Of a DNA stretch of 64,000 nt, positions 30,376 to 44,209 are shown in pieces. The stretch lies in assembly GCA_000004985.1 (NCBI GenBank), contig GG738865.1; one strand, written 5' to 3'. The position numbers and the translations under genes are program-made. Position 1 is the stretch's first letter; each line of letters starts with the position of its first letter. The stretch comes from Naegleria gruberi (taxonomy: Eukaryota). The notes below the pieces were generated by a model. That model had not been told where the DNA came from, made no database searches, and was given only the letters and a program-made list of their open reading frames with translations.

Positions 30376-32649
30376 TCATTTGAACTCTTCGTCAACGAAT
30401 ATAGAAAAGTGGCTAGCAGGTTTTGAAATTGAAGCACCAATTGGTTGCAACATCCCCAACATCATGTCATCGTTTTGTTGTGGTAGTGAGTAATTTGTCC
30501 ACTTGTCAGGTTTCTCATTATTTTCCTTTTCTTGCTCTTGTTCACTTGTCAAGAATCGAGGTCCCATAGATGTTAGTTCTTTTGGAATTTGGAAAGGTAG
30601 AGTTCTAGTTGTGGCGGCATGGGCAATCTTTTCAGCACTTCCATTCGATTCATCATAAATCACAAAGTTATTAATTGGTGAATTCTTCTGAGAGAGACTG
30701 GCATTGCTATTTTTCATTTTAGTTGGTTTCATGGAAGGAATTGGAGGTCCTGATCTTAGGGGTCCACTGGGTATGGCAGTTGTTGGTCTTATTGAGGTTG
30801 GTTTCTTGGCTAGGCTATTGAAAGGTAATCTCTGGTTGTTGGAATCAGTAGCACTCTGCGGGTTGTGTCCTCCAATCATTGGTGGTGCTGTTTGAATTGT
30901 TGAGCTTGCCATGGTTGTTGAGGAAGTGGATGAGGCAGTCCTGTTTAGAATACTCTTCATGAAACGAGCCTTCACACCAGTGTGGAAAGTTTGTAGAGAT
31001 TTTGCAGGTTGAGCTCCTCTATTGATACCCTGTTCAAGAACAGCATCAGCTGCTTTCAAATCCTTTCGATCTTCCAATAGGGTGGCCCATCTAATGTACA
31101 GTTCAGAATGATTGAGACAAATCTTTTTAGACTCCAAAAATGTAAAGACATCAATTGGGTCCAAACACTGGTCTGCATATTTGAGCCAAACTCCCAGATA
31201 TCGTTCATCATTCCTATATCTTTCCAATAATTGTTGATTGGAGAGAATAAACTTTGTACATGCTTGCAGAGTTGGAACGTATTGAGAAGCCTTACTAAGT
31301 GTTGGATAACTCTTTTCAATCCACTCTACATATTCCAACCAAACAGTGATTGGATCTAAATGATTCGACAAGGATGCAATTCTCTTCTCAAATTGTTTTC
31401 TCTCCACTGAAAGTTTTGGTTTCATATTGTGATTATCAAAGCACACCTTTGATTTGGTGAGATTGGAAAAATTGAAATGTGGCTTTCCTTGTTGTGGTAT
31501 TGGACTGGCATCTGTCATGGCACAATCATCCTCCCCAGGTGCTGATAATGCCACAATTGTGTTAAATCCATTAAAACTACTATTCATACACGAGGTTGGT
31601 GAAAACATTCCAGTAGGAGACATTGGAGTCGAGCAAGCATTCACATTATTCGAAGCAGTCATGAGTGGATTGAAAGATGTAGAGCTACTGCTACCATTAA
31701 ATGATGTACAAAGGGTTGGTGGACTCTGGAGTGATGTAGACACAGAACCACTTCCAGGTAGCATGATTGGCTGGAGTGGCTTAATTTCCTGTAAAGGTTG
31801 TTTACCAAATATTCTCCTCAAATCAGTGGCCTTTCTACCACCTTTCAGAGGAATGATATTCTCCTTTGCAGCTTCAAATTCCTCAAAATCAACAATGACC
31901 CTTTCCTCTGTTGATGTTGGTTGTTGTGTTGAATCTTGAATTCCACTTTGATTGTTATTATTATGAGTATTAATGGCAATTGGAGATTGGAAACTATTAG
32001 AAGGTGAAACACTCAAAGATGGAAAACCCTGATTATTGGAGGAGGTAATAATTGAGGAAGGAGAGCAACTAGTCGATGGTGATGAATACACCGAAAAGGT
32101 CATACTATTCACAGTAGGTGAAGAACTCAAACCAAAGGATTGTTGTGGTGAGGATGACAATGAACCAATTTGATTATTATTATTAGTACTTGGAATATCT
32201 AGCAAGTTATTCCCATTAGTAGGCATCATGAGCATTTGATTTCCACTACTAAAACCTAATTCATTTGTATTAATTGTATTATTATTAATTGTATTAAAAG
32301 ATGATGAAGGAAAAACAAGATTAGGCTTTGATAAACTTCTACTCGGACGATTCATCAAGAGACCAGGGGCAGAACTACAACTCGTCAATGATGATCCAAC
32401 ATTGCTAATAGTATTAGTTGGTGATGGATTAACACTGGAGGAGGAAGGCTTTGATAATCTCAAGCCATTGTTGGATGATGGAAACGAGACGGAATTAGTG
32501 GGGAGTGTGATGGTGGGAGTTCCTAGGCGTTGAAAGGAGGATGGTCTGATCAGTGATGCTGGAGGCGGTTTATTGTTTGATGAAGCTTGCTGTTGATTGA
32601 TTGAAGAAGGGAGAGTAGGAGGGAATCGCAAGCGTTGACTTTCAAACAT
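30376..32649 (-). CDS. Mad3/BubR1-like spindle-assembly-checkpoint protein. It has a KEN box and the Mad3/BUB1 homology region 1 (TPR), and no kinase domain.
   Basis: 'WLEYVEWIEKSYP...YRNDERYLGVWLKYADQC.DPIDVFTFLESKKICLNHSELYIRWATLLEDRKDLKAADAVLEQGINRGAQP' matches the BUBR1 TPR region 'YHNDPRFISYCLKFAEY...PLYIAWAGHLEAQGELQHASAVLQRGIQNQAEP'. A KEN box 'FEAAKENIIPLKGG' lies upstream. The N-terminal approx 250 aa is S/N-rich. The ATG at 32647-32649 was verified. Confidence 0.65.
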   Translation of the reverse strand: MFESQRLRFPPTLPSSINQQQASSNNKPPPASLIRPSSFQRLGTPTITLPTNSVSFPSSNNGLRLSKPSSSSVNPSPTNTISNVGSSLTSCSSAPGLLMNRPSRSLSKPNLVFPSSSFNTINNNTINTNELGFSSGNQMLMMPTNGNNLLDIPSTNNNNQIGSLSSSPQQSFGLSSSPTVNSMTFSVYSSPSTSCSPSSIITSSNNQGFPSLSVSPSNSFQSPIAINTHNNNNQSGIQDSTQQPTSTEERVIVDFEEFEAAKENIIPLKGGRKATDLRRIFGKQPLQEIKPLQPIMLPGSGSVSTSLQSPPTLCTSFNGSSSSTSFNPLMTASNNVNACSTPMSPTGMFSPTSCMNSSFNGFNTIVALSAPGEDDCAMTDASPIPQQGKPHFNFSNLTKSKVCFDNHNMKPKLSVERKQFEKRIASLSNHLDPITVWLEYVEWIEKSYPTLSKASQYVPTLQACTKFILSNQQLLERYRNDERYLGVWLKYADQCLDPIDVFTFLESKKICLNHSELYIRWATLLEDRKDLKAADAVLEQGINRGAQPAKSLQTFHTGVKARFMKSILNRTASSTSSTTMASSTIQTAPPMIGGHNPQSATDSNNQRLPFNSLAKKPTSIRPTTAIPSGPLRSGPPIPSMKPTKMKNSNASLSQKNSPINNFVIYDESNGSAEKIAHAATTRTLPFQIPKELTSMGPRFLTSEQEQEKENNEKPDKWTNYSLPQQNDDMMLGMLQPIGASISKPASHFSIFVDEEFK

Positions 32650-32767: not shown

Positions 32768-32850
32768 GCCCGCGTAGCAGAGTGGTCAAATGCGTAAGAC
32801 TTAAGATCTTATCCCGAATGGGTTCGTGGGTTCGAACCCCACCGCTGGCA
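32768..32850 (+). tRNA. tRNA-Leu, anticodon UAA.
   Basis: A cloverleaf was read by eye. The anticodon stem is TAAGA/TCTTA with loop CTTAAGA. There is a long variable arm. The T arm is GTGGG-TTCGAAC-CCCAC. The acceptor has one C-U mismatch. Coordinates are +/-2. Confidence 0.7.
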
Positions 32851-32889
32851 AATTAATTTTTTTCTGTTACCTAATTGACATAAGGATTT

Positions 32890-33468
32890 TTATTTCTTTT
32901 CAATTAATCTAGTAAACAAGTCACTAATCAATTCTTCATCCTTAGGTACCTCTTTCATTAAAATTTCATGATTTGGATGTTCTTCCCAACTTGGATATGG
33001 AGCTTCTTCATAAATTTCACCAAACTTTTCACTCAACTCAGTCTTCAACTCTTCCCAAACTCTTCCTAAATGCATATAAGGTCCAACATAGTGTTTCTTC
33101 AAATAAACTCCTTTTGGAATGGTTTTAAGTTGAATAGGAAGAGAATACGAACAAGTTTCGTTCACTTTCTTTATACTTTCTTCAAATTCTTCTCTCTTTG
33201 AAGGAAGATTGAATTTTTCAACAGTTTCTGCTGTGAGAAAAACAGCATTCTCCAAATCTACATCTTCCACAGAATCGAAACGATTGTAAAACGTAGCTGG
33301 ATACATTCTTGATTGTTCACCAACTAATTTCAATGCCATTTCATGAGTTTGTTTAATCCAATTGGTAAATTCAGGAGTAATGACACTAACTGATTGTCTG
33401 GAGACACTCAGATAGAATTGATCCTCACGGAAGGTAATAAGCTCTGCTGGTTGTGCGAGTTGAGACAT
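32890..33468 (-). CDS. GyrI-like (SbmC/AraC-effector-binding fold) small-molecule-binding domain protein, 192 aa.
   Basis: The C-terminal half 'KKHYVGPYMHLGRVWEELKTELSEKFGEIYEEAPYPSWEEHPN' fits the GyrI-like pattern (G.Y..L...W..L......G......P.YE.Y.ND). The ATG at 33466-33468 was verified. There is no intron. Confidence 0.4.
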   Translation of the reverse strand: MSQLAQPAELITFREDQFYLSVSRQSVSVITPEFTNWIKQTHEMALKLVGEQSRMYPATFYNRFDSVEDVDLENAVFLTAETVEKFNLPSKREEFEESIKKVNETCSYSLPIQLKTIPKGVYLKKHYVGPYMHLGRVWEELKTELSEKFGEIYEEAPYPSWEEHPNHEILMKEVPKDEELISDLFTRLIEKK

Positions 33469-33935
33469 TTTTTTAATTTGAAAAAAGATATTTTGATGGA
33501 AATGGATTGATTGTGGATTTACTAATTTGACACTTCTTATTGGTAGTGGAAGCTCATCTACTTCGAATATCTACTGGAAGTGGGTTCCAATCAATTTGAC
33601 CACTTTGAAAATCTATCAAATAACTTATTATTTGACCTTGGTTGATGGCAATAAGTGGATTATTATTTTCGCAGTAAATAAACTTATTGAAGCTCACCAA
33701 AAATCCTTGTGCAGATATCACTGTTGTGAAATGTTTCAAATTACAGGATGTTTTGCAAAGAAAACCTAATCGAGCATTAATTTTTTACATTCCCCTCATC
33801 ATTGTTGATTTTCTTTATGTAATAAATAAAATCATTGGACAATCTTTTCAGAGCAGATACTAGACATGATATTAAAGGTATTGATATCTCGAGAGTGGCA
33901 AAAGAAAAATAGATGAAGGAAAATGAATCAAAAGC

Positions 33936-34016
33936 TGCAGAAGGTGGGATTTGAACCCACGAAGCTTGCGCAGTAGAACTTGAGTCTACCCCCTTTGACC
34001 ACTCGGGAACCCCTGC
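33936..34016 (-). tRNA. tRNA-Leu, anticodon CAA.
   Basis: The reverse complement folds as a Leu-type tRNA. The acceptor is GCAGGGG/CTTCTGC with two G-U pairs. The D-loop is CCGAGTGGTCAAAGG. The anticodon stem is GTAGA/TCTAC with loop CTCAAGT. There is a long variable arm. The T arm is GTGGG-TTCAAAT-CCCAC. Confidence 0.7.
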
Positions 34017-34155
34017 TTCACATCGTCTCAACAAAGTTGTTTTTCACATTGAAATAGTCCAATAAAAATGGCACGTGCCTTTTTTGTTGGGAATGAATAA
34101 TTGAACTCTAACAATCTAAAATACTACCAACACAGTTCAGTAATATTGTTTAATA

Positions 34156-34833
34156 TTAGAAATGGACGACAGAGTCCATAGTTTTGTCATGTTTCTCAGT
34201 TGGAATGACAAATTGAGTCTCTTCACTTTCAATTAATTGTTTCTCAATTAATTGTTGTTTGTACTCATCGGGAAGTTTGAAATTTTCATCAATAAATTGA
34301 CATGAAAAACAAACTCCAACATGATTTGTCTCAAACTGAATCCTACCTTGCAAATCATCCAATTTTTCAAAGAAAGTATCATAATGACCCTTTCCTCTTC
34401 CCAATCTCCTATTTGAATAATCAAAGGCCAATCCAGGAACTATCACTAATAATTTACTATCCCCATTTAAAGAATCTAGTAAATTTTCTCTATTAGGTAA
34501 GCTTTCAATTGGAGGTTCCAATAACTTATATTTGGTATGAATTTTAAATGTTGAAAAATCCAATTCATCCTTCAGCGAAACCATTGTCATTATATCATTA
34601 ATTACAATGGGAATGAATAGCTGTTTTCCTCTTTTGAGAGCATTGTGAATAATATCCATGGTATCAACTTCATTGCGACCTTGCATTGGAATATAACAAC
34701 AGACATGAGTGCATTTAGTATAAAATTCACTATTTAATATTTGCTGTGCAATACTGTTGGATGATGATTGCTCTTGTTCACTTGTTGAAAGTGAAAGTTG
34801 GTGTTTAAAGTATCTTCTAAAGGTGTTTTTCAT
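34156..34833 (-). CDS. MTHFS: 5-formyltetrahydrofolate cyclo-ligase (MTHFS).
   Basis: 'LLVIVPGLAFDYSNRRLGRGKGHYDTFFEKL' matches the 5-FTHF cyclo-ligase signature (vPglAFD..G.RlG.GkGyYD). The ORF-track start at 34854 is a TTG, and the true ATG at 34831-34833 precedes 'MKNTFRRYFK'. Confidence 0.7.
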   Translation of the reverse strand: MKNTFRRYFKHQLSLSTSEQEQSSSNSIAQQILNSEFYTKCTHVCCYIPMQGRNEVDTMDIIHNALKRGKQLFIPIVINDIMTMVSLKDELDFSTFKIHTKYKLLEPPIESLPNRENLLDSLNGDSKLLVIVPGLAFDYSNRRLGRGKGHYDTFFEKLDDLQGRIQFETNHVGVCFSCQFIDENFKLPDEYKQQLIEKQLIESEETQFVIPTEKHDKTMDSVVHF

Positions 34834-35430
34834 TTTTTTTTGATCAAAAACCAATTGACTAAACTTTTACAAGATCTTTTCTCTAGGCCTAATGTCATAG
34901 ACCCGACTTTTTTGTAAAGAATATTTAACTATTACAAATAAACTTTTAACGGTGCAAATTCCTCATCTCCTTCCTCATCATCTCCTCATGAAAATCAATC
35001 CCATCATCTCCTCTCCATAATTATCACAAAAATTCGCCTGCATCATGCTGATTCGTTCACTCACAAATTTTAATAATAAAAAAATATTAAAAAAAATTTG
35101 CACAACAGTTGTTGCTGCTTTTTCATTTTGAATTTTTTGTATATTTTGTGTGTGATTAAGTGTCATATATAGCGCGTGGAGAGTTTATTGAATACATATA
35201 ATAATATACTAGTATTGAGTGTGTTGCTCTCACGTTCGTCTTCGGATCATCATTAGCGCTAGTATCTTCCCCGAGACAAAATTTTCTTCCATCACCATCA
35301 TCATTATTTATTTTCTAAATATTATATAATTCATATATATTGCATATAATATATTTATTTAATATTCACTTTTAAAATTGTAACGTATAGAGTAAAATAG
35401 CAACCAACATAACAAGTTTTTGAATACACA

Positions 35431-42488: not shown

Positions 42489-42559
42489 GCGTCGATGGTT
42501 TAGTGGTAGAATACGGCGTTGCCATCGCCGTGACCCGGGTTCAATTCCCGGTCGACGCA
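42489..42559 (+). tRNA. tRNA-Gly, anticodon GCC.
   Basis: GCGTCGA...TCGACGC form the acceptor. The D arm carries TAGTGGTAGA. The anticodon stem is CGGCG/CGCCG with loop TTGCCAT. The T arm is CCGGG-TTCAATT-CCCGG. It lies about 70 nt downstream of the GSS stop. Confidence 0.8.
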
Positions 42560-42633
42560 GACATTTCTTTTTCTCTCAACCATTTTAGTTCCATTGTTTT
42601 TCAACTTTTTATCGCTTAAACAAGACATTAATT

Positions 42634-42761
42634 AGTACACGTGGTTCAAAAATTTCTATTCCATTCACTATATTTATCGAGAAAGAGTCCTCGGCTTTGG
42701 CCCTATTTTTTCTCAATTAAAAATGCATCGACGATTCCAAAAAGTACACGTGATTCAAAAC
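42634..42761. promoter_or_regulatory. Two copies of the 18-nt motif AGTACACGTG(G/A)TTCAAAA, about 110 nt apart, in the promoter region of gene 43023.
   Basis: Copy 1 is at 42634..42652 and copy 2 at 42743..42761. Each contains a CACGTG E-box palindrome. Confidence 0.3.
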
Positions 42762-43022
42762 AGCATACAAGATTCGTCAGGCTTTGTTGATTGTTCTTAT
42801 CATAGGAAGGATTTAATGATACAAATATACGAGTGTAAACCATCTGAATATTTAACGATATACTTGGCAACATTACCAAGTCACACACAACAAAATCTCA
42901 AGAAAATGGTGAGTGGCAATAGAAAAACCTTTGGGTATGAGTCAAAAAATTTTGAAAAGAGAAAAAAATCGGTATCGATTTCATTCCCGTCGATGGTTTT
43001 TTATATTTAGACCTTAAAAAAT

Positions 43023-43939
43023 ATGCCTCCTAGAAACAATAATGATAAACCACACCGTCTTTATACGTTTAAAGACTGTACAGATCAAACAATAGAAAAG
43101 GCACTAAAATCTTATAGGCTTGCTGATTTGAAAAGGGCAAGACAACAACTTGCCCACAATTTACCAATGAACGTGCAAGCATTGCAACAACAACAACAAG
43201 CAGAACGGTCCAATATTTGCATCACGAATACCAATAATATTCGTAATGACGATGGAGTACAACATCGAAGAATTGAAGATATCACCCCTCTCTTCGACAC
43301 TCAACCAAGCAATCCTATTTCATCGGTTGTTGATTTTGGTGATCAACTAATTGGTAATCCAATACCTGGTGAGTATTATTTTTATATATCTTTTGATTGC
43401 TAACAAATGATGATCAATTCCATTATTAAATTACCACAGAGCAAGTAAATATTGATTTACTTAGTGATGATAGCACAACAGAAGGTGATGATGATTATTA
43501 CACATTATTGTTAGATGAAGAAGAATTGTTGTCGTCTCCACAAGATGATGATGATTATATTTACTATTATAATGATCAACAACAAGATGATGATAATGAT
43601 GAAGGTAAGTAATTAAATACTATATTAATATACAAATATATAATAATATAATTATGTAATTTTCACAAACCAATTTCATATAATACAGATTTGAAGAACA
43701 ATCTCGCAACCATTGATAATGCCAAACAATTTTCCAAGAGTAAGCTTCAGGAATTAATATTCCCTCAATTAGAACTCATCTTGAGAGTGTTGGAAATCGA
43801 CCCATCCGATATCGGAATGATGGGACTGCTTGGATTTCATGGAAGAAATGTGTTCTTGCCATCGAGTTGGGATTTCTTCTGTCTGAGTGATCAAACGAAG
43901 GCAAAGTTGCAAATAGTAAACGAACACATTCGTGTTTAA
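43023..43939 (+). CDS. Hypothetical protein of 253 aa. Three exons, join(43023..43368,43440..43604,43689..43939).
   Basis: Exon 1 ends G|GTGAGT. Intron 1 is 71 nt and ends ...CCACAG. Exon 2 is D/E/Y-rich and ends G|GTAAGT. Intron 2 is 84 nt and ends ...TAATACAG. Exon 3 is 'DLKNNLATIDNAK...IVNEHIRV'. All junctions are phase 1 and restore a 762-nt, 254-codon frame. No domain was recognised. Confidence 0.5.
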
Positions 43940-44071
43940 AGTATTTTTTTTTGAATATGTTGAATTTGTTGTGAATATTAATGAAATGACCCATCTGAAA
44001 CACACTGAAAAACGATTAGGTTCAATGACAAAATTAGACAATTTCAATCACAAGGACAAAGCAAAATCATT

Positions 44072-44143
44072 CTCCCATGCCGGGAATTGAACCCGGACCT
44101 CCTGGGTGAAAGCCAGGTATCCTAGCCATTGGACTACACGGGA
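44072..44143 (-). tRNA. tRNA-Glu, anticodon UUC.
   Basis: The reverse complement reads TCCCGTGTAGTCCAATGGCTAGGATACCTGGCTTTCACCCAGGAGGTCCGGGTTCAATTCCCGGCATGGGA. The anticodon loop CTTTCAC gives UUC. The arms are canonical. Confidence 0.75.
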
Positions 44144-44209
44144 ATCTTGTTCATAATAATAGTATTACAAATTTGATAATTCATAATCATAGAAACTTTA
44201 TTGTTTTTT

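Follow-up and report, generated by a model that had tools for sequence, protein, structure and literature searches.

At positions 32768-34016 of a 64,000-nucleotide stretch of Naegleria gruberi DNA (contig GG738865.1; the whole stretch is hereafter the window), two convergent leucine tRNA genes stand on either side of a small gene, NAEGRDRAFT_79546, whose product we identify as a GyrI-like protein. The tRNA-Leu(UAA) gene, which decodes UUA, lies on the plus strand at 32768..32850, and the tRNA-Leu(CAA) gene, which decodes UUG, on the minus strand at 33936..34016. Both are RNA polymerase III (Pol III) units on which ARAGORN and Rfam agree, with RF00005 scores of 57.8 and 48.7 bits, respectively, against a gathering score of 29 bits. 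A TTTTTTT run is found 7 nt 3' of tRNA-Leu(UAA) and a TTTT run 3 nt 3' of tRNA-Leu(CAA); T-runs are the usual type of Pol III terminator. The only substantial open reading frame (ORF) between the tRNA genes is the GyrI-like coding sequence at 32890..33468 on the minus strand, a single exon of 192 codons. Its stop codon is 39 bp from the 3' end of the opposite-strand tRNA-Leu(UAA) gene, and its start codon is separated from tRNA-Leu(CAA), which is on the same strand, by a 467-bp spacer (33469..33935) presumed to carry the promoter and 5' leader of the gene on the minus strand. The original prediction had correctly described this convergent tRNA pair around an intronless 192-residue gene. An exact-sequence look-up shows the ORF to be identical to an annotated protein of N. 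gruberi NEG-M, the single-exon XP_002677772.1 / EFC45028.1, which UniProt (D2VDM6) names "GyrI-like small molecule binding domain-containing protein". Neighbouring ORFs match annotated N. gruberi proteins of the same 820-kb scaffold. The locus is thus eukaryotic nuclear DNA, and the gene is already known from RefSeq and UniProt.

Homologues from the genus bring the protein into the GyrI-like family. Taken alone, the window protein scores 17.3 bits (E = 0.006) against Pfam PF06445 over residues 98-185, which falls under the gathering threshold of 26 bits, and a 72%-identical copy encoded on a metagenome contig (L001) reaches 23.1 bits. A profile built from this clade matches an N. fowleri protein (P0007, FDP41_011741) at E = 6.8e-17 and an N. 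gruberi paralogue (P0009, NAEGRDRAFT_75094) at E = 2.8e-8, in alignments that extend across residues about 10-188. These two homologues score 36.3 and 59.3 bits against PF06445, covering profile positions 3-154 of 155, and full-domain homology to such above-threshold proteins confers membership transitively. The prediction that the C-terminal half is GyrI-like was therefore sound as far as the sub-threshold match goes but understated, as the whole protein fits by family and structure. Searched against PDB sequences, a profile of seven family members found 9rtm, a CTR107-derived rhodamine binder (3.9e-6), and CTR107 itself (4e-4), and also CtaZ, SbmC/GyrI, and EcmrR. A single-sequence phmmer search of the same database returned spurious antibody matches only, and an NCBIfam search with the window protein returned nothing.

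The predicted structure agrees with this assignment. An AlphaFold2 (AF2) model built from the seven-sequence family alignment displays tandem beta-alpha-beta-beta (SHS2) repeats around a pseudo-symmetric cleft, with two extra helices (residues 80-106) separating the two repeats. The nearest known structures are bacterial stand-alone and regulator-linked GyrI-like domains, and Lin2189 is among the top structural matches of the model. Family profile and model together indicate that the whole protein is one full-length, stand-alone GyrI-like domain. Clade A, the clade of the window gene, is divergent enough to miss the Pfam threshold, and it is structure and the homologues from the genus that rescue the full-length assignment.

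One pair of residues within this domain, Trp161-Glu162, is invariant in all seven family members. The family motif W-E-E-Y/H aligns onto the Y-E-I-Y motif of CTR107/9rtm, which places Glu162 on the glutamate of that motif. A conserved, buried glutamate of the C-terminal strand (E253 in BmrR, E185 in Lin2189) is the key ligand-contacting or catalytic residue of GyrI-like proteins (PMC5684135). On alignment and this published account, Glu162 would be the counterpart of BmrR E253 and Lin2189 E185.

The original prediction regarded the tRNA genes as integration landmarks for a bacterial-type gene, a proposal that in its strongest form describes a recent horizontal insertion, in the N. gruberi lineage only, of a bacterial GyrI-like gene beside or between the two tRNA genes. 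The composition of the gene argues against this proposal. Its GC content is 0.344 and its third-position GC content (GC3) is 0.254, compared with 0.295 +/- 0.039 in 24 other window ORFs, and its codon-usage fit of 0.375 bits per codon is the best of 25 ORFs; by both measures it is fully host-like. No integrase, recombinase, reverse transcriptase, or other mobile-element gene was found between the tRNA genes or in the neighbouring ORFs. The borders likewise carry no att-like repeat, target-site duplication, long terminal repeat (LTR), or terminal inverted repeat, and the direct repeats present there are short and at chance level. Apart from two (I2 and I4) that correspond to the conserved D and T arms of the tRNAs, the interval has no inverted repeats. 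The tRNA-Leu genes match at 57 of 83 aligned positions and so are not recent duplicates of one another.

Synteny, which the original prediction had put forward as a check, is uninformative on insertion. The GyrI-like loci of N. fowleri and N. lovaniensis share a context, with a YEATS/RING gene upstream and a phosphoglycerate mutase gene downstream. Orthologues of the 5-formyltetrahydrofolate cyclo-ligase gene next to the N. gruberi locus are 56-58% identical in these species and lie between a Macro-domain gene and an MIF4G/MA3 gene, with no tRNA within 20 kb. None of the other window ORFs of at least 120 residues has a counterpart in the GyrI-like or cyclo-ligase loci of either species. Low synteny has been reported between N. 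gruberi and N. fowleri (PMC8040595). As gene order is lost for every gene at the locus, and not for the GyrI-like gene alone, comparison with N. fowleri and N. lovaniensis cannot reveal an insertion, and the lack of shared neighbours lends the insertion proposal no weight.

A single metagenome contig appeared, at face value, to be strong evidence for a prokaryotic host and a recent transfer. L001 (ENA ERZ27254754, contig k141_854625) is 2.5 kb long and carries a full-length copy of the GyrI-like gene, 72% identical to the window gene in protein and 75% in DNA, whose complete ORF of 193 residues had been shortened to 139 residues (P0002) by the gene caller. The copy stands directly 3' of prokaryote-type genes, namely a DUF4258 toxin with a zinc-ribbon/MazE-like antitoxin, an NYN-domain gene, and a nucleotidyltransferase-like gene. 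We rejected this candidate because the contig is chimeric, with DNA of a DPANN archaeon and DNA of a Naegleria-like amoeba joined during assembly. The flank shares 78-89% identity with genomes of Woesearchaeota/Nanoarchaeota, two of which are collinear with L001 over positions 784-1714. Only the coding sequence of the GyrI-like copy (L001 1726-2317) resembles the window. The nucleotidyltransferase-like gene, about 270 residues long in those archaeal genomes, is cut in L001 at residue ~112, and at a junction at about 1712-1726 the cut archaeal gene abuts an A-rich leader and the ATG of the Naegleria-type gene. At 0.46, the GC3 of the L001 copy is like the 0.42-0.44 of its N. fowleri and N. lovaniensis counterparts and unlike the 0.20-0.24 of the archaeal flank, and a GyrI-like gene is absent from all 80 related archaeal loci compared (459 kb). 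L001 thus serves as a cautionary case, in which a contig that seems direct proof of a prokaryotic carrier is an archaeon joined to an amoeba.

The known relatives of the gene come from Naegleria or from metagenomes. An exhaustive HMMER search with the clade profile over 1.84 billion representative proteins gave four matches only, comprising Naegleria or metagenome relatives and one repeat artefact; this last (P0008, 654 residues) was set aside as a repeat-protein false positive. Searching 5.8 billion clusters with a profile brought in N. lovaniensis C9374_000791 and one more metagenome member, and the sole prokaryotic match of this search was a faint one (E = 5.9e-5, about 25% identity) to a GyrI-like protein of Dehalococcoidia. 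The family divides into three clades: clade A holds the window gene and the metagenome copy on L001 (72% identical), clade B the N. fowleri and N. lovaniensis genes (72% identical), and clade C N. gruberi NAEGRDRAFT_75094 and a metagenome copy (51% identical). Members of different clades share about 30% identity. Scans of 185,579 prokaryotic species (GTDB, one genome each), JGI metagenome contigs, and IMG/VR turned up no relative, and in a check on viral origin, with giant viruses of Naegleria in mind, no BFVD structure matched at E <= 0.001.

These searches bear on two accounts of how the gene was gained. For a recent insertion they add that the nearest relatives are all from Naegleria and that an identity of about 30% between clades implies long residence, and they yield no prokaryotic source in the genome and contig collections above. 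Together with the host-like codons, the lack of mobile features, the chimeric nature of L001, and the general loss of synteny, this largely refutes the recent-insertion proposal, which we now consider extremely improbable, and the role of the tRNA genes as integration landmarks falls with it. An ancient transfer is a different matter. In such a history the ancestor of Naegleria would have gained one bacterial gene, which duplicated to give the three clades, with the tRNA neighbours irrelevant to the event. Consistent with this, neither the 5.8 billion clusters nor the 1.84 billion representatives hold a family member from another eukaryote, the lone match outside the genus is the Dehalococcoidia protein, and the structure is closest to bacterial GyrI-like domains. 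However, the bacterial match is too faint to name a donor lineage, and quick divergence of a small protein could mask eukaryotic relatives. GyrI-like proteins have also been argued to be widespread in prokaryotes and eukaryotes alike and not obviously derived by horizontal gene transfer (PMC5684135). On balance, an ancient transfer seems to us a credible history, somewhat short of an even prospect. Any acquisition would predate the split of the three clades and would be unrelated to the present tRNA neighbours. Among sampled eukaryotes the family seems confined to Naegleria, and its origin would lie either in an old bacterial transfer or in rapid divergence.

The original prediction had also called the tRNA arrangement itself unusual. 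The window contains six tRNA genes, all intergenic and all followed by T-runs, and four of the six lie 39-140 bp from a long ORF. In simulations that scatter six tRNA genes uniformly over 64 kb, 44% of runs contain neighbouring genes no more than 1168 bp apart, and 13% contain such a pair in convergent orientation. A literature search yielded no tRNA gene total for the whole N. gruberi genome, and this estimate therefore applies to the window alone. That both genes serve leucine is a mild, post-hoc coincidence. It is softened by the codon usage of the window genes, in which TTG (35%) and TTA (23%) are the commonest leucine codons, because genes for the tRNAs that read UUG and UUA are then probably numerous. 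A second convergent pair, tRNA-Gly-GCC (plus strand, at 42489) and tRNA-Glu-UUC (minus strand, at 44071), spans 42489-44144 around an interval of 1.5 kb. That interval holds small ORFs only (for example, 126 residues at 43023-43403), with no exact annotated match and no Pfam match.

Selection on the arrangement is a further possibility. Convergent tRNA genes might act as boundary or roadblock elements that insulate or terminate transcription, for which the tRNA-gene insulators of yeast are the model. The position of tRNA-Leu(UAA), whose gene ends on the opposite strand just 39 bp beyond the stop codon, is in keeping with this, as the 3' end of the mRNA would have to be made within, or up against, a Pol III gene that is active. 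The second convergent pair also fits, two such pairs being improbable under the uniform model, but that model takes no account of tRNA genes being restricted to intergenic DNA and exaggerates clustering, and no gene that is annotated or recognised by Pfam lies within the second pair. A second N. gruberi-like strain, represented by contigs L002 and L003, keeps the bracket, with tRNA-Leu(CAA) again upstream of the GyrI-like gene in L002; this is the only relative that does so, and at 95-98% DNA identity its retention is uninformative on selection. The 235-bp 3' flank of the copy on L001 contains no tRNA gene and has no similarity to the window, so the sole other clade-A locus lends no support to a conserved bracket. 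The N. fowleri and N. lovaniensis homologues lack the bracket as well. The N. fowleri homologue, at an unrelated locus, has a tRNA-Val-AAC gene (L005 2889-2962) 180 bp downstream, which suggests that a tRNA gene is simply a frequent neighbour of small genes in Naegleria genomes. The same tRNA-Val-AAC gene is present in N. lovaniensis (L006 13888-13961), 3.3 kb from the GyrI-like homologue and on the other strand. Weighing these points, we regard a selected tRNA bracket as very unlikely.

The genes adjoining the tRNA pair are flanks only and belong to no unit with the GyrI-like gene. On one side lies NAEGRDRAFT_66972, a Mad3/BUB1-homology protein (30376..32649, minus strand; Pfam PF08311, 124.5 bits) that exactly matches XP_002677771.1. 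On the other lies the 5-formyltetrahydrofolate cyclo-ligase gene (34156..34854, minus strand; Pfam PF01812, 109.8 bits), which ends 139 bp upstream of tRNA-Leu(CAA) and whose ORF is matched at 100% identity along 97% of its length by the annotated product (P0015). The mechanically called cyclo-ligase ORF has 232 residues and a TTG start, whereas P0015 is shorter at 225 residues, and the true start is presumably an internal ATG. A near-perfect palindrome, CCAATAAAAATGGCACGTGCCTTTTTTGTTGG, with CACGTG at its centre, is located at 34059-34090 between the cyclo-ligase stop codon and tRNA-Leu(CAA) and might be a 3'-end or regulatory element. A third neighbouring ORF in the window encodes an endonuclease/exonuclease/phosphatase (EEP)-family protein by Pfam. 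In the spacer upstream of the GyrI-like gene, a 75-bp segment (33694-33768) is missing from L002 and L003 (run ERR1078381), which are otherwise 95-98% identical; this difference is an indel polymorphism among N. gruberi-like strains. A scan for sigma-70 promoters and intrinsic terminators gave background levels only, and its bacterial models are irrelevant to a eukaryote. A second N. gruberi record (P0004; NAEGRDRAFT_54658, XP_002668695.1) on a 14.5-kb scaffold encodes a 149-residue protein with the same sequence as positions 44-192 of the window protein, and it probably comes from a redundant or allelic small NEG-M scaffold with a truncated gene model.

Collectively, our data argue strongly that NAEGRDRAFT_79546 is a native, vertically maintained N. 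gruberi gene for a stand-alone GyrI-like domain, and that its tRNA bracket is a positional coincidence with no integration footprint; we hold this explanation with high confidence. An ancient transfer is compatible with it, as the two differ solely on deep origin. The interpretation of the original prediction is partly supported, its gene and tRNA calls being borne out and its integration scenario discarded. Several observations weigh against our explanation. The 5.8 billion clusters and 1.84 billion representatives contain no eukaryote beyond Naegleria with family members, and the nearest match outside the genus is bacterial, so an old bacterial origin of the whole family is compatible with the data and deserves consideration, though we lean modestly the other way. 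Two convergent close pairs among six tRNA genes have a probability of about 0.006 under a naive uniform model, which inflates apparent clustering because tRNA genes are confined to the small intergenic fraction; convergent pairing may thus not be wholly random in the N. gruberi genome, a weak and unexplained hint. The Pfam score of the protein alone is sub-threshold, so its family membership is derived from transitive homology and a predicted structure. Finally, the position two residues after the conserved glutamate is His164 in the window clade and tyrosine in the other two Naegleria clades.

We propose a working model for the locus on this basis. NAEGRDRAFT_79546 represents one of the clades of a small family that diverges fast and that our searches detect only in Naegleria. 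The two tRNA-Leu genes are Pol III genes in their own right, serve the two leucine codons used most, UUG and UUA, occupy short spacers of a compact genome, and are tucked between protein genes. In the protein, the two beta-alpha-beta-beta repeats are predicted to form a cleft that, by analogy with SbmC, CTR107, SAV2435, CtaZ, and Lin2189, may accommodate a small molecule of planar, hydrophobic, or cationic character. Glu162 of the invariant Trp161-Glu162 pair would supply a buried acidic contact, as Glu253 does in BmrR and Glu185 in Lin2189. The bound molecule could be sequestered, as by SbmC, CTR107, CtaZ, and the albicidin-resistance protein, or possibly hydrolysed, as by Lin2189/YtkR7. A plausible role for such a protein is to shield a bacterivorous soil amoeba from toxic bacterial metabolites. 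The bolder version of this idea, in which a genus-restricted family stems from an old bacterial acquisition, split into three clades, and sequesters or hydrolyses bacterial DNA-damaging or cationic toxins, is speculative, and we think it rather unlikely. If true, it would mean that a eukaryote has put a bacterial self-resistance fold to use. The notion of convergent tRNA pairs as boundary elements around small genes is separate from it and less likely still. The locus itself is an ordinary, already annotated stretch of the N. gruberi genome and matters little.

Comparison with known systems places the gene more clearly. With tRNA-targeted elements, such as bacterial genomic islands and the Ty3/TRE-type retrotransposons, the locus shares tRNA adjacency only; in contrast to them, it has no integrase, reverse transcriptase, LTR, att or target-site repeat, or odd composition, and consists of a single host-adapted gene. 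Eukaryotic SOUL/HEBP haem-binding proteins give weaker structural and sequence matches than do bacterial-type GyrI-like proteins, and the Naegleria protein has no Pfam SOUL match. In BmrR and EcmrR (MerR family) and Rob (AraC family), GyrI-like effector domains are fused to DNA-binding domains and work as transcription switches, whereas a Pfam scan detects no DNA-binding domain in the Naegleria protein. The cyclopropanoid cyclopropyl hydrolases (CCH subfamily) Lin2189 and YtkR7 (PMC5684135) are 11-14% identical to it. Lin2189 employs the catalytic acids E157 and E185 and an aromatic cage of Y46, W85, W99, F154, and Y187 (PMC5684135); by alignment, only the E185 equivalent (E162) can be placed in the Naegleria protein, and the equivalent of Y187 is His164. 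E. coli SbmC/GyrI (1jyh), CTR107, SAV2435, and CtaZ are likewise stand-alone GyrI-like proteins and are 13-15% identical to it. Compared with SbmC-type proteins, the Naegleria protein is about 35 residues longer and carries the two extra helices (80-106) between its repeats, resides in a eukaryotic host, and in clade A has histidine rather than tyrosine or isoleucine two residues past the conserved glutamate.
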